A stretch of DNA of 24,000 nucleotides from NCBI GenBank assembly GCA_040221695.1, contig JAVKEA010000190.1; one strand, given 5' to 3'. Positions 2,929-17,293 of this stretch are shown piece after piece. The position numbers and the translations under genes were made by a program. Origin of the DNA: Coleofasciculus sp. E2-BRE-01. GTDB lineage: Bacteria; Cyanobacteriota; Cyanobacteriia; Cyanobacteriales; Coleofasciculaceae. Each line of letters opens with the position of its first letter. Within the stretch, counting starts at the first letter, position 1. Below the pieces are notes generated by a model that saw only the letters and a program-made list of their open reading frames with translations, was not told the DNA's origin and did no database searches.

Positions 2929-5487
2929 ATGAAGCGAACGAAATTACTGCCGTACTTATTGCTGAGCAACTCAGTTGGTGTCTTAGTGGCAACGTCAGCC
3001 TTAGCTGAGGTTACACCAATCAGTCAATCTCCAATAATAGAACGTTCTCATCTTAGTGAGATAGAGTTTCCCCTGACCCCCGTTAAAGGACGAGTTCAGC
3101 AACCTGAGTCAGGGAAATCAGCAGTCGTTGCCCAAGTCGATGGGAACCTTGTCCAAATAACGGGTGTACAGCTTAACCCAACAGAGATGGGGTTGGACAT
3201 CATATTAGAAACCTCAGAAGGAGTCGCGCTGCAAGCCGAAACCAGGAGTGAAGACAATACCTTAATTGCTGATATCCCTAATGCCGTGCTGCTACTTCCA
3301 GAGGGTGAGGCGTTTCGCCAAGACAATCCCGTTGAAGGCATTGCCTCAGTGATAGTAACACAGCAGGATGTCAACAGTATTCGGGTGACGGTGACGGGTA
3401 CAGAAACAATACCGACAGCCGAAGTAATGTCAAGTGCATCCGGATTAGTCTTCAGCCTGACAACTGCCCCGGATACCGCTGAAATGCCGCCTGATGCCCC
3501 AGAAGAAATTGAAATTGTGGTAACGGCTGAGCCAGAAACCGGATATCGCGTCCCTAGGGCGACAACGGGGACAAGAACAGACACCCCAATCCGCGACGTT
3601 CCCCAATCTATTCAAGTTATCCCCCAAGAAGTGATTGAAGACCGTCAAGTCACCCGTCTTAGCGAATTAGCTGATAACGTCAGTGGTGTACAACCGTCTG
3701 TCGGTTATGGTGGACTTCCTTCCAATCAAACCTTTATTCGCGGTTTTCGCTCCGGAGTAAACCTCCGCGATGGTTTTCGGGATTTCGGTTTTTTGTCTCC
3801 TCGTGATGTTAGTAACATTGAGCGAGTTGAGTTTCTCAGAGGTCCAGCATCGGTTCTTTATGGCAACCTTGAGCCAGGTGGAATTGTCAATACCGTAACC
3901 GAACAGCCCCTACCCTATCCCTTCTACGAAGTGAGCATGACGGTTGGCAATTATGATTTTTACCGCCCAACCATTGACCTGACAGGACCACTTACAGAAA
4001 ATAGAGAGCTGCTTTATCGCCTCAACGTCGCCTACGAAAATGCAGACAGTTACCGGGACTTCAATGAGAACGAAAGTATCTTTATTGCTCCCGTGCTAAC
4101 TTGGAACATTGGACCGCGTACCACTCTGACCACAGAAGTTGAGTATCAAAACTATAACTACGTTTTCGATCGTGGCTTTCGACCAGAACCGGAATTTCTG
4201 GAACTCCCTCGGAGCCGATTTTTAGGAGAACCCGATTTTAACGATGCTGAAGTTGACTCCTTCTTTGGTAGCTATAGCTTTCAACATGAGTTTAGTGACA
4301 ACTGGAAATTCCGCCAAGGGTTCAGCGCTATTATCGTCAACAATGATATCCGGGAAGTCAACCTTCGCCCCTTAGAGGATGATCGACGCACCCTGCCCCG
4401 TCGCGCTTCCATGTCCGATGAATCTCAGGAAAACTATACGCTACAAAACGAATTTATCGCTGAATTGCAGACAGGCTCTATCGGTCATCAAATTCTGTTC
4501 GGACTAGACCTGAGCCGCTATGAATTCACCTACGACTTTTTCGGAGCGCCTCTAGCTTCCATTGATATCTTCGATCCGGAGTATGGAGCAGAACCTGGGG
4601 ACTTTGAGCCAAGCTTTGCTGAAGAATACGGCTCTAACACCATTGCCTTTTACATGCAAGATTTGATTGAGGTGTTGCCTCAGTTAAAAATTCTAGTAGG
4701 GGGTCGCTTGGACTGGAGTGATATCTTCTACAGAAACCGTTTTACCGATGAATCCATCAATGATCTATCAGAGTTTGCCTTCTCACCGCGAGCTGGCATA
4801 GTGTATCAGCCAACTGACTCCACCTCCCTTTATTTCAGTTGGGCGAAGTCATTTAATCCCCAGTTTTTCAGTAGGAGTCGGACAGACGAGGCGTTTGAAC
4901 CCGAACGGGGCGAACAATTTGAAATTGGGGTGAAGCAAGAGTTTTTGGATGGCAGACTGGCAGCTAACTTGGCACTTTACGAAATCACCAAGCAAAATGT
5001 TCTAACGCCTGATCCAATTGATCCTATCTTCAGCATTCAGGCGGGAGAACAAACAAGTCGGGGGATTGAATTGGAAATCGTAGGTGAAATCTTACCGGGA
5101 TGGAATATTATCGCCACCTACGCTCACACTGATGCCTTTGTCAGTGAGGATAACACGATTCCAGAAGGCGATCGCTTGGTTGGTATCCCGCTCAATAGTG
5201 CGAGCCTCTGGACAACTTATGAAATTCAACAGGGTGGTTTGCAGGGTTTAGGGTTTGGTGTCGGCGTCTTCTTCGTCGGTGACAGGGAAGCCCGACTGCC
5301 TAATACAGGCTTGGAAATTCCATCCTATGTCAGAGCAGATGCTCGTCTTTCTTATCGACGAGACAATTGGCAAGCTGCCGTTAACTTCAAGAATCTTTTC
5401 AACACCGAATATTACGAAACCCAAGGATTCTTTCTCACTCCCCAAGCTCCTTTCACGATTTTGGGAACGATTGCGGTGGAGTTTTAA
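2929..5487 (+). CDS. TonB-dependent ferric-siderophore outer-membrane receptor (FhuE/FpvA-like) with N-terminal extension
   Basis: 852 aa. Signal peptide MKRTKLLPYLLLSNSVGVLVATSALA. A roughly 150-aa extra domain precedes the plug and looks AMIN-like, as in other cyanobacterial receptors. TonB-box-like EEIEIVVTAE. Plug motifs RDVPQSIQVIPQEVIEDRQ, FIRGF and RVEFLRGPASVLYG. Long beta-barrel ending in a terminal aromatic (TIAVEF). Confidence 0.9.
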   Translation: MKRTKLLPYLLLSNSVGVLVATSALAEVTPISQSPIIERSHLSEIEFPLTPVKGRVQQPESGKSAVVAQVDGNLVQITGVQLNPTEMGLDIILETSEGVALQAETRSEDNTLIADIPNAVLLLPEGEAFRQDNPVEGIASVIVTQQDVNSIRVTVTGTETIPTAEVMSSASGLVFSLTTAPDTAEMPPDAPEEIEIVVTAEPETGYRVPRATTGTRTDTPIRDVPQSIQVIPQEVIEDRQVTRLSELADNVSGVQPSVGYGGLPSNQTFIRGFRSGVNLRDGFRDFGFLSPRDVSNIERVEFLRGPASVLYGNLEPGGIVNTVTEQPLPYPFYEVSMTVGNYDFYRPTIDLTGPLTENRELLYRLNVAYENADSYRDFNENESIFIAPVLTWNIGPRTTLTTEVEYQNYNYVFDRGFRPEPEFLELPRSRFLGEPDFNDAEVDSFFGSYSFQHEFSDNWKFRQGFSAIIVNNDIREVNLRPLEDDRRTLPRRASMSDESQENYTLQNEFIAELQTGSIGHQILFGLDLSRYEFTYDFFGAPLASIDIFDPEYGAEPGDFEPSFAEEYGSNTIAFYMQDLIEVLPQLKILVGGRLDWSDIFYRNRFTDESINDLSEFAFSPRAGIVYQPTDSTSLYFSWAKSFNPQFFSRSRTDEAFEPERGEQFEIGVKQEFLDGRLAANLALYEITKQNVLTPDPIDPIFSIQAGEQTSRGIELEIVGEILPGWNIIATYAHTDAFVSEDNTIPEGDRLVGIPLNSASLWTTYEIQQGGLQGLGFGVGVFFVGDREARLPNTGLEIPSYVRADARLSYRRDNWQAAVNFKNLFNTEYYETQGFFLTPQAPFTILGTIAVEF

Positions 5488-9197: not shown

Positions 9198-9600
9198 ATG
9201 GATTACCTCGTTGACCCTGGGGTTACCTATCCTAAACTTAATCCCCAGGCAAACTTACGTTTGTTTTGTTTTCCCTACGCCGGAGGTGCTGCTCGGATAT
9301 TTCGGACGTGGAGTGATAGCTGTGCTAGAGAATGCCGAACTGATGCAGTTTATTCTGCCTATCCTGCGATCGGATTTTGCGGTACTTGAAACCTATGTTT
9401 ACACCCCTAAGTCACCCCTGAATTGTCCGATTTCCGCGTTTGGGGGTTCGGATGATCCAGAAGCGACTTGGGATGATTTGGAAGGATGGCGGATTCAGGC
9501 TAGGGCTGCATTCTCATTGCGTATGTTGCCTGGAGATCACTTCTTTTTGCATTCAGCCGAGAGGTTGCTGTTGCCAATTCTTGCCGAGAATTGTCATTGA
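9198..9600 (+). pseudogene. Type II thioesterase remnant with an internal, frame-shifting deletion of the catalytic core
   Basis: The frame starting at 9198 gives a TEII N-terminus, LRLFCFPYAGGAARIFRTWSD. From about 9317 the next frame gives a TEII C-terminus, VLENAELMQFILPILRSDFAVLETYVY...CPISAFGGSDDP...LPGDHFFL. The roughly 110 aa that normally carry the GxSxG serine are absent, and the two halves are out of frame. Confidence 0.7.
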
Positions 9601-9618
9601 CAAAGCGTGCGATCGCCT

Positions 9619-10020
9619 TTACTGTCTCTGAGCAGCGATCGCTAATTTGGTTCCCTCAATTTGACGCAACCGATCCATCACACTCACCACCCGACCATGA
9701 TCAACTTTTTCATCAGCATTGACAATGACAAGGGATTCACTATTCGGCACAACTAAAGCGCGAACGGCTTCTTCAAGCGCCTCTAATTCAATCGGCTGGC
9801 GATTCAGGGCAATTTTTCCATCGGGCTGAATCGTAACCGTAATTTCAGTACTCGGCTGATTTTGGGCAGTTGTAGCATTCGGTAAATTCACCGACAACCC
9901 TTCTGAACGGGTCAAGTATAGCGTCGAAATAATGAAAAATGCCAAAATCGAGAAAATCACATCGATCATCGGCACGATGTTAATTTCTCCTGGCTTCTCT
10001 GACTCATCGGGAAGCCGCAT
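9619..10020 (-). CDS. exbD: ExbD/TolR-family biopolymer transport protein
   Basis: MRLPDESEKPGEINIVPMIDVIFSILAFFIIST, followed by a periplasmic domain. The ATG at 10020 is preferred over 10041 because AAGGAG lies 8 nt upstream of it. Either start overlaps the end of exbB. Confidence 0.85.
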   Translation of the reverse strand: MRLPDESEKPGEINIVPMIDVIFSILAFFIISTLYLTRSEGLSVNLPNATTAQNQPSTEITVTIQPDGKIALNRQPIELEALEEAVRALVVPNSESLVIVNADEKVDHGRVVSVMDRLRQIEGTKLAIAAQRQ

Positions 10021-10654
10021 AAACCTCTCTCCTTTGCTCATATTGACGACGATAAAGCAGTTCTAACTGACCGCCATATTCCTGAATCAACGCCAGTTGT
10101 CGCTGATAAAAGCTCCGGAAAATATTGGAGAAAAAGAGGGTGAAAATTGCCACAACCAACCCCATGACGGTTGAAACCAAAGCTTCGGAAATTCCCCCCG
10201 TGACTCCCGTCGTGCGGGTTCCGCCAACATCACCAATATTCAGGGAAGAAAACGCTGTTATCAAGCCCAAAATCGTTCCCAAAAGACCGAGGAGAGGAGA
10301 AATACCAACAATCGTATCAAACACGGTATTAAATCGCTTCAACGTTGGCAATTCTGCCTGAGCTGCACTCTCTAAAGCCAGACGGAATTCCTCCGGGTTG
10401 GGGTTGTCAAGCTCTAACGCTTCGAGAAAAATCTTGGCAATCGGCAAATCAGCATTCTGCTGTAGATAGTTGATCGCCACGTCTGGCTTTTCTCGGTAAA
10501 GCTTCAGAACGTCTCTCACAACTCGGCGTTGCCGACGAGTGACCCGAAACCAAAAAAACAATCGCTCTACAATCAGGGTGACTGCCGCCAGGGAAAATAG
10601 GAGTAGGGGCCAAGCGACGATTCCGCCTGACTGGAAAAATGGAATAATGGGCAT
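10004..10654 (-). CDS. exbB: ExbB (MotA/TolQ/ExbB proton-channel family)
   Basis: 216 aa with three TM segments. Contains the conserved LLGLLGTILGLI and GGISEALVSTVMGLVVAI regions. Confidence 0.9.
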   Translation of the reverse strand: MPIIPFFQSGGIVAWPLLLFSLAAVTLIVERLFFWFRVTRRQRRVVRDVLKLYREKPDVAINYLQQNADLPIAKIFLEALELDNPNPEEFRLALESAAQAELPTLKRFNTVFDTIVGISPLLGLLGTILGLITAFSSLNIGDVGGTRTTGVTGGISEALVSTVMGLVVAIFTLFFSNIFRSFYQRQLALIQEYGGQLELLYRRQYEQRREVYAASR

Positions 10655-10720: not shown

Positions 10721-10735
10721 TGATAATTATTTTCA
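10721..10735. promoter_or_regulatory. Candidate Fur box in the exbB/tonB divergent intergenic region
   Basis: TGATAAT-T-ATTTTCA differs at one position from the 7-1-7 palindrome TGATAATnATTATCA. It lies 67 nt upstream of the exbB start codon. A weaker GAAAATAACTATCAAAA is at 10941-10957. Confidence 0.45.
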
Positions 10736-11102
10736 ATAGATGTATTCCTAAATCGGTTTCCTTGTCAAGGTGTTGAGCGAAATATTTTTCGTTACTCAAG
10801 AGTCTGCTAGGACGTTTAGCGATCGCTTATCCAGCCAAAACCACGGATAATCGGGCGTTTAGCGACTCTTGGGGGGACTAAGTTCGGAACTCTTCCTACT
10901 TGACAGGAATAGTGAATTGGTGTAGTTAAGCCAATTTGTTGAAAATAACTATCAAAACAATTTTGTGGATATTCGTGACTAGGTTTGTCATGTTATACTT
11001 GCCAAGTTCATTTATTGTTTCACCGTTAATGCAACTTATATGCAATAATCTGGAGTGGTTGAGACGATAGGCGCTTGAGTAATCAGGAAAGGTGCGTAGC
11101 GT

Positions 11103-12863
11103 ATGAGCATATCGAGCTTCTGTATAGAGCAGCACAAAAAAGAACAAGAGGCTCTCAAAAAGTTTCTCATCTACAGCTTTGCTGGGAGTGCGGTGCTGCA
11201 TATAGTGCTAGCCCTTGGCATAAGCTGGGCTTGGGAAACAAGACCAGAACTTGCCGAAGACCCCATTGAAATCATACTTGTGGAGGAACCTGAAGTACCT
11301 AAACCAGAAGAACAACCTCTAAAAGAGACTCCAAAGCCAAAAGCAAAGACAGTTGAAACCCTAACTCCACCGCAACCGACCAAAACGCAGATACCAGAGC
11401 CAATTAAACCGCAGCAACGGGCTGACGCTTTACCTCAAAAACCCGTCCAGCAACCCGTACCTGCTCTACCAGCAACACCTCAAAAACCCGTAACGCCACC
11501 TGCACCCACCTCAGTAGAGCCACCCACTGAACCGACAAGGGAACGCAGCCCCGTTGTTACACCTCCCTCAGAACCCGTTCGTGAACCCTCAGAACCTGCT
11601 CTATCACCACCTGAACCCGTAGCCATTAATAATTCAGCACCGCCACGCCCAGAAAACAATTCCCAACCACTTCAGACTGACTCAGACGTAGGAAAACTTA
11701 GAGAACGCTTAAGCGAACCAACGACGACACAATCAACAGCACCACCCAATGATGACGCCTCTGAAGCCAACCCCACATCCCCAGGTGCAGTGGCAACCAA
11801 TCCCTCTGCACCCCCACGACCCAGAGGAGTTTCTGGAATACTTTCTGATGCGTCAAAGATTACCGAAAACATCAGAGATCGCTTAGGCGGTAGCTTTTCA
11901 GAATCGACAGGTTCTCCAAGTGCCGAAGACTCAATGGCTGACCCTGGCTTGCCAGGAGCAGTGGCGACCAATCCCTCAGCCCCTACACGACCCAGCGGTA
12001 CTTCCCAACCGCTTTCAGGTTCTTCTTCGGGTTCCCAACCATTCAGAGAAAGCTTGGGCGGTGGCAGTTCTGGCGAACGAGCTTCATCAAGTGAGGGCGA
12101 CTCAATAGCTAATCCTGGCTTGCCAGGAGCAGTGGCGACCAATACCTCAGCTCCTACGCGACCAAAACCAGGGGGTAACGCAGGGGGGGATCGAACTGAA
12201 GATGGAGGCGGGGGATTGCGTTGTATTAGGGGGTGCAATCCCGATTATCCATCCTCTTTGGAAGGTGAGGAAGGGAGAGTCCCTGTCAATGTTGAGCTGG
12301 ATAGAAACGGTAATGTAGTGAATGCGCGAGCGAGTGGAGGTACTCGCAGTAGACAATTTGTGCAAGAAGCGGAGGCAGCCACCAGGAGGATGAAGTTTAC
12401 AAAACCTGAAGGTAGAGACCGTGTTACCGTCACAGTAAATATTAACTTTACACAACCAGGCTCTGAGTTTGATCGCCAAGCTCGCGAACGTCGAGAACAG
12501 AATGAGCGCGAACGCCAGCAGAGAGAACAGGAGCGTCAGGCGCAGCTCGAACAGGAACGCCAAGAACGGGAACGTCAGGCGCAGCTTGAACAGGAACGCA
12601 AAGAACAAGAACGCCAAGAGCAACTCGAACGCGAACGTCAAGAACAGCTCGAACGCGAACGTCAAGAACAAGAACGTCAAGAACAACTTGAACGCGAACG
12701 CCAAGAACAAGAACGTCAAGAACAACTTGAACGCGAACGCCAAGAACAAGAACGTCAAGAACAACTTGAACGCGAACGCCAAGAACAAGAACGTCAAGAA
12801 CAACTCGAACGCGAACGCCAAGAACAGGTGGAAGAAGTACCCCCTCCCGAACCTACAGAGTAA
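11103..12863 (+). CDS. tonB: TonB-family energy transducer with atypical repeat block and C-terminal charged tail
   Basis: 586 aa. N-terminal anchor FLIYSFAGSAVLHIVLALGISWAW contains the SxxxH motif. A Pro/Glu/Lys-rich spacer follows, then 3 repeats of about 57 aa. TonB C-terminal domain: DYPSSLEGEEGRVPVNVELDRNGNVVNARASGG...RRMKFTKP...VTVTVNINF. About 130 aa of E/R/Q-rich sequence then follow that domain. Confidence 0.85.
   Translation: MSISSFCIEQHKKEQEALKKFLIYSFAGSAVLHIVLALGISWAWETRPELAEDPIEIILVEEPEVPKPEEQPLKETPKPKAKTVETLTPPQPTKTQIPEPIKPQQRADALPQKPVQQPVPALPATPQKPVTPPAPTSVEPPTEPTRERSPVVTPPSEPVREPSEPALSPPEPVAINNSAPPRPENNSQPLQTDSDVGKLRERLSEPTTTQSTAPPNDDASEANPTSPGAVATNPSAPPRPRGVSGILSDASKITENIRDRLGGSFSESTGSPSAEDSMADPGLPGAVATNPSAPTRPSGTSQPLSGSSSGSQPFRESLGGGSSGERASSSEGDSIANPGLPGAVATNTSAPTRPKPGGNAGGDRTEDGGGGLRCIRGCNPDYPSSLEGEEGRVPVNVELDRNGNVVNARASGGTRSRQFVQEAEAATRRMKFTKPEGRDRVTVTVNINFTQPGSEFDRQARERREQNERERQQREQERQAQLEQERQERERQAQLEQERKEQERQEQLERERQEQLERERQEQERQEQLERERQEQERQEQLERERQEQERQEQLERERQEQERQEQLERERQEQVEEVPPPEPTE
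11766..12165 (+). repeat. In-frame 171-bp (57-aa) repeats inside tonB, two full copies plus one partial
   Basis: Copies start at 11766, 11937 and 12108. Each opens with A(N/D)P(T/G)(S/L)PGAVATN(P/T)SAP(P/T)RP and ends with S-rich ...LGG.S....S.E(D/G)DS(M/I). Confidence 0.7.
12651..12827 (+). repeat. Near-perfect 39-bp tandem repeat inside tonB, 4 full copies plus a partial
   Basis: Unit gaacgcgaacgYcaagaacaagaacgtcaagaacaactY encodes ERERQEQERQEQL. Copies start at 12651, 12690, 12729, 12768 and 12807. More degenerate E/R/Q copies extend back to about 12469. Confidence 0.9.
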
Positions 12864-12953
12864 GACTGTAACCCAATGCCAGATGCAATCTCTAAAAATA
12901 ACTCAACAATTAGCCCCATCTATTTCAATTTCAATAAAGGAGGTATTTGTCTA

Positions 12954-14015
12954 ATGCTTCGTACAATCGGACGATTCGGAATAACGTTACTTATTGCCTC
13001 AAGCGTAGATATTGCCAGCCATGTTATCAATCCCTCGATCGCAGTAGCAGGTGTTGTAACCTTACCCGATGGGGGTCGCTGTGAAGGGGCAATGAGCAAC
13101 GGTAACCTCAACGGTGAAGTCGTCTGTGAATACGCGAATGGCGATCGCTATGAAGGAAACTTTGTCGATGGTAACAAGAAAGGTCAAGGCACCTACACCT
13201 TTGCTGATGGCGGTCGTTATGAAGGTGAGTTTAGCAACGACCAACCCAATGGCAAAGGTGTTCGGGTGTACGAAAATGGCGATCGCTACGAAGGGGAGTT
13301 TAAGGACGGTCAGCCTAACGGTACGGGAACCTACATTAGCGCCGATGGCGGTCGCTATGAGGGACAGTTTACGGATGGCAATCCCAGCGGTACAGGAGCC
13401 TTTATTTTAGCCAATGGCGATCGCTGTGAAGGCGAAATTCAAGACGCTAACCTCAATGGTATGGGGGTGTGCGACTATGCTAATGGCGATCGCTATGAAG
13501 GTGAACTGAGTGATGGTAAGGCGAACGGTCAAGGAGTCTACACCTTCTCTGAGGGGGGGCGCTACGAAGGAACGTTTAGCAATGGTCAGTTCAGTGGCAA
13601 AGGGGTTCGGGACTATCCCAATGGCAATCGCTACGAAGGGGAATTTAGTAATGGCAAACCCGAGGGTCAAGGCGTGTACGTCTTCGCTAATGGAAACCGC
13701 TACGAAGGTCAATTCAGTAACGGTAAATTTAACGGCGAAGGTGTTTTCACCGACGCCAATGGTAATCGTTACGAAGGACAGTTTAGTAACGGTAAGTTCA
13801 ACGGCACTGGAATTTATACGTTTGCTAATGGCGATCGCTGCGAAGGACAGTTCAGTGAGGGTCAGTTAAACGGCAAAGCTGTCTGTAACTATGCCAGTGG
13901 GGATAGCTTTGAAGGAGAATTCCTCAATGGACAAAGGCAGGGAGAAGGTGTCTATATTTTCGCTGACGGAACCCGTGTGGAGGGAAATTGGGAAAATGGG
14001 GAGATTCAAAATTAG
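12954..14015 (+). CDS. Secreted MORN-repeat protein (14 x 23-aa repeats)
   Basis: The ATG at 12954 is preceded by AAGGAGG, and the track start at 12876 adds 26 implausible residues. Signal-like N-terminus MLRTIGRFGITLLIASSVDIASHVINPSIAVAG. Then 14 repeats of G(D/G/N)RYEG.F..G...G.G.Y.F. Confidence 0.8.
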   Translation: MLRTIGRFGITLLIASSVDIASHVINPSIAVAGVVTLPDGGRCEGAMSNGNLNGEVVCEYANGDRYEGNFVDGNKKGQGTYTFADGGRYEGEFSNDQPNGKGVRVYENGDRYEGEFKDGQPNGTGTYISADGGRYEGQFTDGNPSGTGAFILANGDRCEGEIQDANLNGMGVCDYANGDRYEGELSDGKANGQGVYTFSEGGRYEGTFSNGQFSGKGVRDYPNGNRYEGEFSNGKPEGQGVYVFANGNRYEGQFSNGKFNGEGVFTDANGNRYEGQFSNGKFNGTGIYTFANGDRCEGQFSEGQLNGKAVCNYASGDSFEGEFLNGQRQGEGVYIFADGTRVEGNWENGEIQN

Positions 14016-14096: not shown

Positions 14097-15131
14097 TTGG
14101 TAAGCAAGAGTGCTACGGCAAGAGAAACGAGTAGGGGGCGATCGCGCCTTTTACTCCCCGTGGGTTTGTCTCTGAGTCTGTTGATTCTGCTCGTCAGCTT
14201 GGTGGCAAGCATTACCTATGGTGCCGCCGATATTTCCTTCGATACTGTCTATGCCGCTTTAACCAACTTTGATGGCTCTACCGATCACCTGATTATCCGC
14301 ACAGTCAGATTGCCGCGATCGCTGATTGCCATGCTAGTGGGTGCTGCCCTTGGGGTGGCAGGTGCCCTGATGCAGGGATTAACTCGCAACCCTTTAGCTT
14401 CGCCGGGAATCCTGGGAGTTAATGCGGGTGCGGCAATGGCAGTCGTCATCGCTGTTTTCCTCTTCGGCTCATCTTCCCTGAGTGTCTATGCTTGGTGTGC
14501 CTTTGGGGGGGCAGGTGTTACGGCAATCACCGTCTATTTGCTCGGATCTCTGGGTCGAGGGGGACTGACTCCACTCAACCTGACGATTGCGGGTGCGGCA
14601 TTGACTGCCTTACTGTCCTCACTCACCACTGCCATCCTCATCCTTAGCCAACAAACCCTGGATGAAATCCGCTTCTGGTTAGCTGGATCGGTGGCGGGTC
14701 GGGATTTCACGTTGTTCTTACAAGTGCTGCCTTACATCGGCATTGGATTAGCGATCGCGTTTGCCTTAGGGAAACAAATGACCACCCTAACTCTTGGTGA
14801 CGATGTGGCTAAAAGCTTGGGTCAACAAACCCTATGGGTGAAACTAACCGCCGCCGTGAGTGTGGTTTTGCTGGCAGGGAGCGCTGTCGCGGCAGCTGGT
14901 CCGATTGGATTTATTGGTCTGGTTGTTCCCCACATTGTCCGCTTTTTAGTGGGCGTTGATTATCGCTGGATTCTGCCTTATTCTGCCATTTTTGGTGCCA
15001 TCCTACTCCTGGTCGCTGATATCACTGCCAGGGTGTTGATTAGTCCTCAAGAACTGCCCGTGGGAGTCATGACTGCTCTAGTGGGCGCTCCGTTCTTCAT
15101 TTATCTGGCGCGGTTCAAGGTGAAACGGTGA
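14097..15131 (+). CDS. FecCD-family iron-siderophore ABC transporter permease
   Basis: 344 aa and polytopic. Motifs [43 protein letters not shown] and [15 protein letters not shown]. Confidence 0.9.
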
Positions 15132-16174
15132 GAAAAAACTGGCTAGTTATTCGTCCTCGACTGTTGCCTATATCGTTCCGTATAGAACGGCGCGTACCAA
15201 CCGTACTACTCGTATTGGTTTTGGTGACTCTCGCGGCGATCGTGATCAATGTGGGGCAAGGGGAATATCCCATTCCACCATTGGCTGTTTTAAAAACGAT
15301 TGTGGGGTTGCCGACGGCTAACCCCGACTATGCCTTTATTGTGAATGTGCTGCGGTTGCCCAGAACGTTAGTCGCCTTTGGGGTAGGAGTAGGATTAGCC
15401 ATCTCTGGGACGATTCTGCAAGGACTGACACGCAATCCCTTAGCCGATCCCGGCATCATTGGCGTGAATGCGGGTGCGAGTTTAGCGGCTGTCAGTTTAA
15501 TCATTTTATTTCCAGATGTGCCGCTGTTTGCCCTACCTTTGTCTGCCTTTGCTGGAGCGTTGGTTGTTGCCATCTTTATCTACCTTCTGGCTTGGGATCA
15601 GGGCAGTTCTCCCATCCGGTTAATTCTCGTCGGTGTCGGGATAGCCGCTATCCTAGGGGCTTTGACGAATTTAATGGTCACATTGGGGGAAATTAATAGT
15701 GTCAGTCAGGCATTGGTTTGGCTGGCGGGAAGTGTCTACGGACGGGGTTGGCAGCATGTCGGGGCATTATTCCCTTGGCTGGCGGTGTTTGTACCCCTGT
15801 CGTTGGCGCTTTCGATGCCACTGAATGCCCTCTCACTGGGAGATGACCTTGCCAGAGGACTGGGGGCGAGAGTGGAGTGGCAGCGGGGTTTGTTATTGCT
15901 CATGAGTGCGGCAATGGCGGGTGCGGCTGTGGCTGTGGCGGGTACGGTTGGCTTTGTGGGATTGATGGCACCGCACTTGGGGCGTCAGTTGGTTGGACCC
16001 AATCACGAAGGGTTAATGCCAACAGCAGCGCTGATGGGTGGACTAATTATTGTGCTGGCTGATTGGTTGGCACGGGTACTCTTTGCACCCATCGAGTTGC
16101 CCTGTGGTGCGATTACCGCCGCTGTCGGTGCCCCTTATTTTCTCTATCTGCTGGTTCGCAACCGCAAGCGATGA
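15128..16174 (+). CDS. FecCD-family iron-siderophore ABC transporter permease (second subunit)
   Basis: 348 aa. Its GTG start overlaps the upstream stop (GTGA). Motifs [43 protein letters not shown] and [15 protein letters not shown]. Confidence 0.9.
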
Positions 16175-16213
16175 CCCTATCTAATTTAGGGGTTGCTGAA
16201 TAAGTGTTGTGGT

Positions 16214-16320
16214 GAGGGGGAGCGGGGGAAGCTGGGGAAGCTGGGGGAGCTGGGGGAGCTGGGGAAGCTGGGGAAGCTGGGGAAGCTGGGGAAGCTGGGG
16301 AAGCTGGGGAAGCTGGGGGA
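16214..16320 (+). repeat. Nonamer tandem array (AGCTGGGGA/G), about 11 copies
   Basis: Units are phased from 16221 to 16319. The array lies in the spacer between the second permease gene and the ATPase gene. The G-rich strand is the sense strand. Confidence 0.9.
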
Positions 16321-16379
16321 GGTGAACTCAAAACTCTACCTTACCTATTGCCCATGAAACACCGAGCGAAGCCGAGGTG

Positions 16380-16470
16380 TTGCCCATTGCCTATTGCCCA
16401 TTACCCATTACCCATTGCCCATTGCCTATTGCCCATTGCCTATTGCCTATTGCCTATTCCCTGTTCCCTT
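16380..16470 (+). repeat. Heptamer tandem array (TTGCCCA/TTGCCTA/TTACCCA), about 13 copies; STRR-type
   Basis: Direct reading shows 13 consecutive 7-nt units, ending 38 nt before the ATPase start codon. Confidence 0.9.
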
Positions 16471-16507
16471 TCCTAACCAAAATGTCCTGCTTTAGACGGA
16501 TAACCAA

Positions 16508-17293
16508 ATGAGCTTATTGTCAACTCGCCGACTTTCTCTGGCGTATGATGGAACACCTGTGATCACGAACCTCGACCTGGCAATTCCTGTCGGGAAGATT
16601 ACGGCTTTGGTTGGACCCAACGGCTGTGGCAAATCAACCCTGTTGCGGGGACTGGCGAGGTTGCTCAAGCCTTGTGCAGGTACAGTTTACTTAGACGGGA
16701 CTGATATTTTCAAGCGCTCAACCAAAGCTGTGGCGAAGCGATTGGGAATTCTCCCCCAAAGTCCAGTAGCTCCGGAGGGGTTGACGGTTCGAGATTTGGT
16801 CGCTCAGGGTCGTTACCCTTACCATAACTGGTTGCAGCAATGGTCAAAAGATGATGAAATCCTGGTGGAGAAGGCGCTTTTCATTACAGGGATAACCCAA
16901 CTGGCAGACCGAGTATTGGACACGCTTTCGGGTGGACAACGACAACGAGCTTGGATTGCTATGGCACTAGCTCAGGATACAGAGATTCTGCTATTGGATG
17001 AACCGACAACGTTTTTAGACTTGGCGCATCAAGTCGAGGTATTGGATTTGTTGTATGAGTTGAACCAGAGCGAAGGGCGGACGATTGTTATGGTACTGCA
17101 CGACCTGAATCAGGCGTGTCGCTACGCCAATCATCTGGTTGCCGTGCGCCAGGGTCAAGTTTATACAAAAGGAGAGCCAATGCAAGTTGTGACGGAGGCG
17201 ATGGTGCGTGAAGTGTTTGGTTTGGAGTGTCGGATTGTGCCTGACCCGGTAGCGGGGACGCCAATGTGTGTACCAATGGGTCGTTGGGTGTAA
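16508..17293 (+). CDS. Iron-siderophore ABC transporter ATP-binding protein (FecE/FhuC-like)
   Basis: 261 aa. Walker [10 protein letters not shown], signature LSGGQRQR, Walker [10 protein letters not shown]-loop VLHDLN. Confidence 0.9.

Follow-up and report, generated by a model that had tools for sequence, protein, structure and literature searches.

A predicted charged helix follows the C-terminal domain of the main TonB of many cyanobacteria

The main TonB of many cyanobacteria very probably has a genuine C-terminal tail beyond its C-terminal domain (CTD). In the window, a stretch of 24,000 nucleotides from Coleofasciculus sp. E2-BRE-01, the tail consists of a Gly-Ser N-cap (GSEFDRQAR), one charged helix and a short acidic end containing Pro. 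The helix is predicted to resemble a single alpha-helix (SAH) domain of the ER/K type, here made of E, R and Q, and not a coiled coil. Its length drifts among homologues while a helix-compatible composition is kept, and its distal part would be a recent product of in-frame 39-bp repeat amplification. We hold this identification with high confidence, the amplification and the nature of the whole tail being judged jointly. A role as a stiff spacer or scaffold rod on the CTD is put forward tentatively. Identity and role taken together, as one explanation, are evenly poised between right and wrong.

Table 1. Position of tonB, its parts and its neighbours in the window.
Feature	Position	Strand	Basis and remarks
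AMIN-Plug-barrel TonB-dependent siderophore receptor, presumed client	2929..5487	+	Pfam and NCBIfam
exbD	9619-10041	-	Pfam ExbD 1.2e-30; divergent from tonB
exbB	10004-10654	-	Pfam MotA_ExbB 2.2e-34; divergent from tonB
Two Fur-box-like 7-1-7 palindromes, exbB-tonB intergenic region	10721-10735 (1 mismatch), 10940-10954 (2 mismatches)		Consensus pattern match only
tonB	11103..12863	+	586 aa plus stop; ORF list; 100% identical to 'TonB family protein', Coleofasciculus sp. E2-BRE-01
Cytoplasmic stub and membrane anchor, aa 1-45, SxxxH (S29, H33)	11103..11237	+	AlphaFold2 helix 5-45
Pro-rich periplasmic linker, aa 46-370 (325 aa)	11238..12212	+	19% Pro; predicted disordered
Three 171-nt (57-aa) linker repeats	11738..12163	+	Repeat family search
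TonB_C domain, aa 371-452	12213..12458	+	Pfam and TIGRFAM matches; AlphaFold2
Junction/helix N-cap GSEFDRQARER, aa 453-463	12459..12491	+	Conservation; AlphaFold2 helix start at E455, right after G-S
Predicted single continuous alpha-helix, aa 455-577, 123 residues, ~18 nm, E/R/Q-rich	12465..12833	+	AlphaFold2
In-frame 39-bp (13-aa) tandem arrays, distal helix	12524..12826	+	Loose copies 12524-12647, near-identical copies 12633-12826; Tandem Repeats Finder
Terminal acidic/Pro motif VEEVPPPEPTE, aa 576-586	12828..12860	+	Last 9 residues non-helical
Periplasmic MORN protein, signal peptide and exactly 14 x 23-aa MORN repeats	12954..14015	+	Pfam MORN 2.7e-85
fecCD-type permeases	14097-15131, 15128-16174	+	Pfam; synteny
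ABC ATPase	16508-17293	+	Pfam; synteny; with the permeases, downstream part of conserved cassette (14097..17293)

The tonB product belongs to the TonB family by its SxxxH anchor, its Pro-rich linker, TonB_C matches above curated thresholds and a TonB CTD fold, and by the exbB, exbD and receptor genes nearby. S29 and H33 were invariant in an alignment of 29 full-length homologues. The linker had an AlphaFold2 pLDDT below 50 over most of residues 47-370, and each of its 57-aa repeats contains PG(L)PGAVATNPSAPxRP (residues 224, 281 and 338). PF03544 (TonB_C) matched residues 381-449 with 33.1 bits (cut-off 24.6) and TIGR01352 matched residues 381-451 with 39.2 bits (cut-off 27.1). The CTD was modelled as a beta-beta-beta-alpha-beta fold with a pLDDT of about 90, and a conserved CxxxC pair (C374, C378) precedes its YP motif. 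Foldseek matched the CTD model to 1u07, 8rd6, 1xx3, 2gsk, 2grx and 6i97, all with a probability of 1.00 and TM scores of 0.67-0.74 (target-normalised).

Classical TonB (E. coli; 1u07, 1xx3, 2grx, 2gsk) has the SxxxH anchor, the Pro-rich linker, the TonB_C fold (TM about 0.7), the adjoining exbB and exbD and the siderophore-receptor locus in common with the window protein. The CxxxC pair and the length of the linker, about 325 aa, set the window protein apart. The two also differ in their ends. The CTD is the C-terminus of classical TonB, with about 8 residues after the last CTD strand in E. coli, whereas 134 more residues follow it in the window protein, 123 of them in one helix. This departure from the classical layout leaves family membership unaffected. 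As an orthologue of the published Synechocystis and Anabaena TonBs, the window TonB would energise TonB-box-dependent transport.

The surrounding genes fit an iron-uptake locus of this kind. The divergent arrangement of exbB and exbD is kept in related loci, and the Synechocystis tonB and exbB1D1 genes have a bidirectional promoter under Fur control (PMC8634477). The receptor has a TonB-box-like stretch, EEIEIVVTA, at about residues 192-200. Its N-terminal extension holds only this stretch and an acidic/Pro stretch, with no basic or helical segment complementary to the tail.

The tail (residues 453-586) is 34% E, 26% Q, 22% R and 6% L, E/Q/R making up 82%, and has a net charge of -17 with about 10% hydrophobic residues. 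AlphaFold2 predicted its helix with a pLDDT of 94-99 (about 98) in two independent runs, one from the CTD plus tail alignment (H95-217 of that model) and one from the full-length protein (H455-577), although high confidence on a lone helix is no proof of stability in solution. The N-cap sits five residues past the last CTD strand. F456 and R458 probably pack onto the CTD, as their conservation suggests. Neither Pfam nor NCBIfam has a family for the tail. The first-pass annotation had read this gene as a TonB with a CTD at about 12220-12460 followed by some 130 residues, almost all E, R, Q and L in a 13-residue pattern ending in VEEVPPPEPTE, and hence with two spacers, one Pro-rich before the CTD and one charged and helical after it. 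That reading was borne out by the profile matches, which place the domain at about 12213-12458, by the 39-bp tandem array, by the end of the translation, and by the contrast between a disordered linker and a predicted helix.

The predicted helix has the features of an SAH domain in that it is long, unbroken, rich in E and R and non-amphipathic, with an excess of opposite-charge i/i+4 pairs (27, against 2 same-charge pairs). E+R+K amount to about 57%, plus the Q, while SAH domains typically have at least about 70-80% E+K+R, and the composition is therefore helix-favouring but not canonical. SAH (ER/K) domains, for example those of myosin VI/X and caldesmon, serve as stiff spacers or levers. The tail is like them in its high content of E plus R/K, its dense opposite i/i+4 pairs, its lack of a hydrophobic seam and its long unbroken predicted helix. 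It is unlike them in being Q-rich (26%), in using R almost exclusively over K, and in being periplasmic and bacterial. SAH domains lie between two domains, whereas the tail helix lies at a free C-terminus, except in paralogues with two CTDs.

The junction between CTD and helix has the consensus G-S-x-F-D/E-R-x-A-R. G453 was invariant and S454, F456, R458 and A460 were at least 90% conserved. Junction and charged helix were present in every named close homologue, Synechocystis tonB included, and all named homologues were cyanobacterial. An exhaustive, tail-blind search, with the CTD alone as query, generated 91 full-CTD matches. The junction and/or an ERQ-rich tail was found in 48/91, and 44/45 junction-carrying matches had the CxxxC CTD signature. 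Among the remainder, 18 stop no more than 13 residues past the CTD and 25 continue otherwise, often with more CTD copies. Seven CxxxC CTDs also stop within 13 residues of the domain, among them at least one fragment (P0081, 80 aa). The tail is thus probably not universal, even among cyanobacterial-type CTDs. A locus scan using the pattern [ED]FDRQARE, taken from an 8-sequence alignment, gave 9 loci, and the taxonomic survey is a sample and not a census. The tail, which Synechocystis tonB also has, is conserved as a feature of the clade and is not a peculiarity of the window gene, which makes it less singular than first assumed.

Across homologues the charged helix ranged from 21 to 207 aa, with a median helical stretch of 63 aa. 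Given this tenfold variation, no particular length seems to be required. The variation weakens a reading of the helix as a 'ruler' and is compatible with partly neutral expansion. Composition was more constant than length. In 91 tail-bearing homologues the tails stay free of helix breakers across 60-200 residues, and their summed i/i+4 pairs were 982 opposite-charge and 163 same-charge (about 6:1). Terminal motifs differ from clade to clade, and many homologues have a Pro-rich end segment or motif. Tail ends akin to that of the window protein (EEVPLSVPGE, EEVPLPVPGE, ENVPLTPPSQ and EELPQPTAVE) occur in relatives. Several clades have a further conserved motif behind the helix, for example LRKFRERIE among sequences of the Pleurocapsales type. 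Small secreted TonB_C paralogues have their own junction and ERQ helix behind each CTD. In the two-CTD paralogues the ERQ helix is the connector between domains, so its role there matches that of a spacer.

The distal part of the window helix is built of the unit LERERQEQERQEQ, which occurs four times exactly, at residues 516, 529, 542 and 555. The four copies differ in nucleotide sequence at third codon positions only (synonymous). Tandem Repeats Finder assigned 5.0 copies with 97% matches (score 360) to the tight 39-bp array, which is preceded by the looser one. Close Coleofasciculus relatives have differing copy numbers, and tail length changes through in-frame gain or loss of the 39-bp repeat. 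Alternative-frame ORFs across the repeat, at 12147..12821 (- strand) and 12469..12954 (+ strand), are by-products of the low-complexity sequence.

In the reading that we tentatively prefer, the tail would be a stiff, highly soluble rod with a fixed orientation on the CTD, attached to the strand that binds the TonB box. It would act as a spacer or scaffold in the periplasm of cyanobacteria, which is wide and contains a thick peptidoglycan layer. The rod would keep the CTD monomeric, and would offer its conserved helix base and its terminal peptide to periplasmic partners from the same iron-regulated operon. It would lie outside the force path running from the membrane anchor to the CTD.

An unlikely alternative is that function resides in the first 20-35 residues alone, namely the N-cap and the conserved charged base of the helix, which might for instance cap the edge strand of the CTD or block strand-swapped dimers. 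The remainder of the tail, 134 aa in all, would then be tolerated low-complexity filler from replication slippage. Conservation is indeed centred on the junction, the 97% identity of the distal copies points to recent amplification, and copy number varies even among close relatives. Tail length is also loose, and several complete TonBs whose genes adjoin exbBD and MORN genes (P0020, P0025 and P0026) manage on tails of 34-42 aa; yet the median helical stretch is far above this minimum. Mere filler is also difficult to reconcile with the lack of helix breakers and the ratio of charge pairs among homologues. Conserved post-helix motifs such as LRKFRERIE would be pointless unless the helix carried them to some destination.

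The gene just downstream of tonB encodes the MORN protein. Its likely true start is the ATG at 12954, with AGGAGG upstream, and a scan of the + strand between tonB and this gene detected no terminator-like site. The protein was classified as periplasmic on the strength of its signal peptide and three Cys pairs. A MORN gene was found just downstream of tonB in 16/17 related loci with a Phe-containing junction, with a small secreted TonB_C gene between the two in three of the 16, and in 0/2 Nostocales-type loci with a diverged junction (P0077 and P0078). In Synechocystis sp. strain 6803, slr1484 encodes the iron-regulated TonB and shares a transcript with slr1485, and iron starvation induces both genes (PMC8634477, PMC11221513, PMC3516471). 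Synteny together with this co-transcription and iron regulation supports a functional link between tonB and the MORN gene.

Whether this link extends to contact is more doubtful. The first-pass annotation had suggested that the tail could dock the MORN protein, and the functional part of that suggestion stood. Docking proper, in which the groove of the MORN beta-sheet would clasp the tail or its conserved base to form a cyanobacteria-specific TonB accessory complex, we consider rather improbable. MORN sheets are known to bind long helices, as in MORN4-Myo3a and junctophilin, and chains of 6jle, 7rw4 and 7rxe are sequence relatives of the MORN protein. The protein is also in the right compartment, and its gene is absent from both loci in which the junction has diverged. 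In the 8 pairs for which length was measured, however, mature MORN proteins were always 319-320 residues long (two more taxa gave about 300) and had 14 repeats throughout, against tails of 34 to 135 aa. Their net charge was -1 to -23, against tails that were acidic or neutral. No matching of charge or length between tail and MORN protein was found in the 8 pairs, and docking along the whole tail is unlikely on these figures. Stenomitos keeps a 101-aa tail with no adjoining MORN gene, and synteny is a sign of a shared pathway, not of contact.

A broader proposal, which we rate as a long shot, is that the Ton system of cyanobacteria has an accessory layer of its own, so far unrecognised, made up of the post-CTD helix, the co-transcribed 14-MORN protein (Slr1485 family) and small secreted paralogues of the TonB_C-plus-ERQ type. 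The tail, as a rigid element, would draw these proteins to a place beneath the receptor or hold them there, perhaps to pass siderophores across a wide periplasm with thick peptidoglycan or to control access to the TonB box. Cyanobacteria would then depend for energy transduction on components absent from the E. coli paradigm.

We give little credence to the idea that the helix or its terminal Pro/acidic peptide anchors the CTD at the cell wall or the outer membrane, parking the TonB head by the receptors across the thick peptidoglycan. Tethering of TonB to peptidoglycan or the outer membrane was among the functions that the first-pass annotation had proposed. The helix, at about 18 nm, is comparable to the gap of about 32 nm that separates the outer from the plasma membrane in Anabaena (PMC8597729), and a Pro-rich end is widespread among homologues; the terminal motifs, though, are clade-specific. 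Pfam and NCBIfam searches found no known peptidoglycan- or lipid-binding domain or motif in the tail. A strongly acidic or neutral tail is also a poor match for anionic peptidoglycan and LPS.

The first-pass annotation had left the choice between a single alpha-helix and a coiled-coil rod, and had listed oligomerisation among the possible functions. The evidence favours the former, and dimerisation or oligomerisation of TonB by way of a coiled coil was rejected on the periodicity of the window tail. There is one Leu per 13 residues, a step of 220 degrees round the helix, and no peak at periods of 3.5, 3.6 or 7 was present. With so few hydrophobic residues, no heptad signal and Leu stepping in this way, oligomerisation through a coiled coil is unlikely. 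A highly charged tail (-17) and the unequal repeat periods of homologues (13, 10 and 8 residues) also argue against it. The predicted helix is long, and in some other lineages L/A residues recur at a spacing of about 11, possibly as a weak stripe, but overall we regard a coiled coil as very improbable.

An assembly or annotation artefact, with the true stop right after the CTD, has nothing in its favour except that tandem repeats are difficult to assemble in general, and was rejected, as there are 134 open codons and an identical protein on record, independent assemblies of relatives (P0002, P0003, P0004, P0005 and P0007) keep the tail and its terminal motif with differing copy numbers, the motif persists across genera, and tails follow the CTD in the finished genomes of Allocoleopsis (CP003630), Gloeothece (CP001291), Stanieria (CP003653) and Synechocystis (CP007542). 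The same relatives dispose of the possibility that the tail is missing from all homologues.

The usual description of TonB as an anchor, a linker and a C-terminal head rests on proteobacterial proteins. The main TonB of many cyanobacteria adds a conserved, N-capped helix, predicted to be rigid, right on the strand that grips the receptor, and is accompanied by a periplasmic MORN protein in an iron-regulated operon. Iron uptake limits the growth of cyanobacteria and hence primary production. Cyanobacterial envelopes are wider, and their walls thicker, than those of E. coli, and a rod added to the head of its force transducer could be a way in which the Ton system accommodates such an envelope. 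The tail would also exemplify an SAH-type domain in the bacterial periplasm. Searches of the open-access literature found no function described for the tail or its MORN partner, in line with the first-pass annotation, which named no established one for this layout. They found only remarks on the slr1484-slr1485 co-transcription and, in a figure legend, a 'C-terminal extension', which is drawn for Anabaena TonB2/3/4 (PMC8597729) and is analysed in none of the papers covered.

Several known proteins resemble the window TonB in part. Synechocystis tonB (P0071/L014, CP007542) has the same layout, with the junction GSDFDRQARER, a charged helix of about 65 aa that leads into a Pro-rich end, exbBD in divergent orientation and a MORN gene downstream, and could serve as a model for direct study of the tail. 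The window helix is about twice as long and is built of near-identical 13-aa repeats. TonB3 (All5036) of Anabaena sp. PCC 7120 is of the same family. In the Nostocales relatives P0077 and P0078 the diverged junction reads GSQRHRQ and is followed by a short charged stretch and then a P/S/T-rich one. TolA, a force transducer of the TonB superfamily, likewise has a long charged periplasmic helix (domain II), and TolA III CTDs were weaker Foldseek matches to the window CTD. The TolA helix is rich in A/K/E/D and lies between anchor and CTD, in the force path, whereas the window helix comes after the CTD and the disordered Pro-rich linker does the spanning.

Of the defining features of TonB that could be tested, the tonB product lacks only one: its C-terminal domain (CTD, aa 371-452) is not the C-terminus. 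The TonB_C model of Pfam scored 33.1 bits over aa 381-449 (cut-off 24.6), and TIGR01352 scored 39.2 bits over aa 381-451 (cut-off 27.1). In the SxxxH motif of TonB anchors, S29 and H33 are invariant in an alignment of 29 full-length homologues. AlphaFold2, run with the full-length alignment, predicted a helix at aa 5-45 containing the N-terminus and membrane anchor, a disordered linker at aa 46-370 (19% Pro, pLDDT below 50) and a confident β-β-β-α-β CTD. When the globular part was compared with the PDB, Foldseek returned the solved TonB CTDs 1u07, 8rd6, 1xx3, 2gsk, 2grx and 6i97 (TM 0.67-0.74, target-normalised). These are ~80-90 residues each with nothing C-terminal of the domain, whereas 134 residues follow it in the window TonB.

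The first-pass annotation described ~130 residues past the CTD, almost all E, R, Q and L in a 13-residue pattern, with VEEVPPPEPTE at the end. This description was borne out. The 134-residue tail (aa 453-586) is 34% E, 26% Q, 22% R and 6% L, and it does end in VEEVPPPEPTE. The unit LERERQEQERQEQ occurs four exact times, with nucleotide differences at two third-codon positions only. According to Tandem Repeats Finder, looser copies of 39 bp begin at 12524 and lead into an array of the same period at 12633-12826, with 5.0 copies and 97% matches.

The same AlphaFold2 model makes aa 455-577 a single helix (pLDDT ~98), so that the protein has, as first described, two spacers, the Pro-rich disordered linker and a charged helix after the CTD. 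A separate AlphaFold2 run on aa 361-586 with 36 CTD plus tail sequences agreed (mean pLDDT 91.3, helix at model residues 95-217, which are aa 455-577). At 0.15 nm per residue the 123 residues extend ~18 nm. The helix starts at E455, right behind G453-S454. In the homologue alignments this junction (GSEFDRQARER in the window TonB) keeps G453 without exception, and its S454, F456, R458 and A460 reach 90% conservation or more. In our interpretation G-S-x-F-D/E is an N-cap and sets the start of the helix five residues beyond the last CTD strand. In the E. coli complexes 2grx and 2gsk, the TonB box pairs with that strand. The conservation of F456 and R458 suggests that these two residues pack on the CTD.

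Within the helical segment 27 i/i+4 pairs are of opposite charge and 2 of the same charge. Hydrophobic residues make up ~10%, and the only recurrent one is Leu, every 13 positions, which is a 220-degree step round an ideal helix. A Fourier scan of the segment found no power at periods of 3.5, 3.6 or 7. These features are the signature of an ER/K-like single alpha-helix (SAH) and not of a coiled coil, so of the two rods first proposed the SAH is favoured over the coiled coil. The tail is predicted to be SAH-like with Q in place of much of the usual K/R, and its sequence logic is similar to that of eukaryotic ER/K single alpha-helices. TolA likewise has a long charged periplasmic helix, but on the opposite side of the CTD. 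The structural description, a conserved N-cap and a single charged helix after the CTD, has high confidence.

Because the first homologue search was biased by tail-derived words, 1.84 billion representatives were searched exhaustively with phmmer, the query being only the CTD (aa 371-452). This generated 156 hits with E-values no higher than 1e-3. The counts that follow rest on the 91 full-length CTD matches among the best 150 of the 156. The junction and/or an ERQ-rich tail was present in 48/91. The classical layout, ending within 13 residues of the CTD, accounted for 18/91, and 25/91 had another continuation, often more CTD copies. A CxxxC pair at the CTD start was found in 44/45 junction-bearing matches. 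Seven CxxxC-type sequences, at least one of them a fragment, end within 13 residues of the domain; the tail is therefore typical of the CxxxC-type CTD but probably not universal. Homologue alignments show no exception at one Cys and at least 90% conservation at the other. The pair probably forms a disulfide in the periplasm or serves as a metal or redox site; such a pair before the YP motif is not known from proteobacterial TonB.

All taxonomically named hits were cyanobacteria (Coleofasciculaceae, Symploca, Moorena, Leptolyngbyaceae, Pleurocapsales, Chroococcales and Synechocystis), and the tail is restricted to cyanobacterial-type CTDs. Nostocales relatives have a diverged version. The window protein is identical to one recorded for Coleofasciculus sp. 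E2-BRE-01 as 'TonB family protein'. That the tail is unique to this genome was rejected, as it occurs in other cyanobacteria including Synechocystis, where a real and conserved feature becomes directly testable. In the searchable literature, with subscription-only papers outside it, the sole mention is the phrase 'C-terminal extension' for Anabaena TonB2/3/4 in a Figure 1 legend (PMC8597729); the helix nature, conserved junction, distribution, and MORN and small-CTD partners are absent from it. A layout with such a tail is also missing from a 2025 survey of TonB/TolA architectures (PMC12204202).

Among 91 tail-bearing homologues there were 982 opposite-charge versus 163 same-charge i/i+4 pairs, with a median of 9% hydrophobic residues. 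The repeat period is 13, 10 or 8 residues depending on lineage, so the conserved trait is composition plus helicity, not the repeat unit. Tails are 21-207 aa long (median 98). Counted only as far as the first Pro, the median is 63 aa, and the window tail, with 127 aa, is among the four longest. The tail evolves by in-frame repeat gain and loss. In many lineages a Pro-rich segment follows the helix, and some clades have a terminal motif of their own: tails of Coleofasciculaceae finish with an EEVP-type motif and those of another group with an IDEILKRN-type one. Pleurocapsales-like tails (P0032-P0066; locus L012, 2854-4005) have a ~60-aa charged helix, then ~20 Pro-rich residues and, at the end, a strongly conserved, amphipathic LRKFRERIE-type motif, EE[LM]LRKFRERIExYQ, which suggests that this rod delivers a docking peptide.

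In some genomes, genes for small secreted proteins that contain one or two TonB_C-like domains lie between those for TonB and MORN; the window has no such gene. Their signal peptide is close to that of the MORN protein. The Allocoleopsis protein has a single domain (217 aa), and one CTD type, found there and in the two-domain forms, carries a ~25-aa insertion. Since a GSxFxRQ junction and an ERQ helix follow every one of their CTDs, CTD and N-capped charged helix behave as one evolutionary module. In two-CTD forms the helix connects the domains and is thus used as a spacer. These proteins could be soluble TonB-box decoys or adaptors.

For the window TonB, the tail would be a stiff, soluble rod mounted at a fixed orientation on the CTD edge, outside the anchor-to-CTD force path. 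It may act as a spacer or scaffold in the periplasm, offering its base or terminal peptide to partners, a role we propose tentatively. The Anabaena periplasm is ~32 nm wide (PMC8597729). Somewhat unlikely is that only the helix base matters and the remainder is slippage-driven filler.

The first-pass annotation also suggested that the tail docks the MORN protein, which has a signal peptide, exactly 14 repeats of 23 aa and three Cys pairs; it has no domain entry in the precomputed Pfam tables. A terminator scan found no terminator-like site on the + strand between the two genes. In 19 further loci, a MORN orthologue lay just downstream of a Phe-junction tonB in 16/17 cyanobacterial loci with readable downstream sequence (a small secreted TonB_C gene intervening in 3 of the 16), the exception being a Stenomitos MAG. 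It was absent next to Nostocales-type tonB (2/2 loci). The Synechocystis neighbour corresponds to Slr1485, annotated 'phosphatidylinositol phosphate kinase' or 'salt-induced periplasmic protein'. In Synechocystis 6803 tonB (slr1484) and the gene of 'periplasmic protein Slr1485' share one transcript; its bidirectional promoter is under Fur control and also serves exbB1D1, and iron starvation induces both genes (PMC8634477, PMC11221513, PMC3516471). A common function is supported by synteny and co-expression. Two tests, of length and of charge, disfavour binding along the entire tail: in eight pairs the mature MORN protein is constant at 319-320 residues while tails measure 34-135 aa, and net charges are -1 to -23 for MORN proteins and +1 to -17, most acidic, for tails. 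Any contact would involve the conserved first ~30 tail residues, and docking of MORN at the helix base is unlikely. The N-terminal extension of the receptor has no complementary basic helix.

A wall or outer-membrane tether is improbable. Oligomerisation through a coiled coil is very improbable given the lack of hydrophobic periodicity and the opposite-charge i/i+4 excess. An assembly artefact or false stop has almost no probability, because close relatives in independent assemblies have the same tail and end with differing copy numbers, and finished genomes (Allocoleopsis franciscana, Gloeothece citriformis PCC 7424, Stanieria PCC 7437 and a Synechocystis) carry a tail after the CTD.

The window locus is a siderophore system.

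Features of the window siderophore locus and of related loci (L numbers)
Feature	Position	Strand	Remarks
AMIN-Plug-barrel receptor	2929-5487		
EntS-like MFS transporter			
PvdQ-like acylase			
exbB-exbD	9619-10654		divergent from tonB
Fur-box-like palindromes, 7-1-7	10721-10735; 10940-10954		exbB-tonB intergenic; TGATAATTATTTTCA and TGAAAATAACTATCA; consensus match only
tonB	11103-12863	+	ORF, 586 aa
57-aa direct repeats, three	11738-12163		TonB linker; 171 nt each, with PG(L)PGAVATNPSAPxRP
CxxxC pair, C374-C378	12222-12236		directly before CTD YP motif
MORN gene	12954-14015	+	start most likely 12954, behind AGGAGG; listed start 12876 a probable upstream extension
Two FecCD permeases, ABC ATPase			after MORN gene
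MORN orthologues	L001 10444-11502; L003 9475-10533; L014 7626-8672; L015 3244-4290; L018 1592-2509; L019 6229-7140; L020 6913-7968		
Small secreted TonB_C proteins	L001 9685-10338; L004 8001-9080; L009 1300-2367		P0016-P0024; two CTDs in P0016-P0024, L004, L009

The palindromes parallel the Fur-guarded bidirectional promoter reported for Synechocystis. The TonB linker has a weak AlphaFold2 helix at aa 250-261. A SAPTRP-like segment also lies immediately before the CTD in both the window TonB and the small secreted paralogues, so the linker may hold duplicated 'pre-CTD' segments. Between the acylase gene and exbD, 9198-9631 contains short overlapping ORFs, and one translation starts 'NLRLFCFPYAGGAARIF', resembling a type II thioesterase start. 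A thioesterase gene occurs close by in related loci (L004, 11729-12142), and the window ORFs may be a frameshifted or degraded copy of such a gene.
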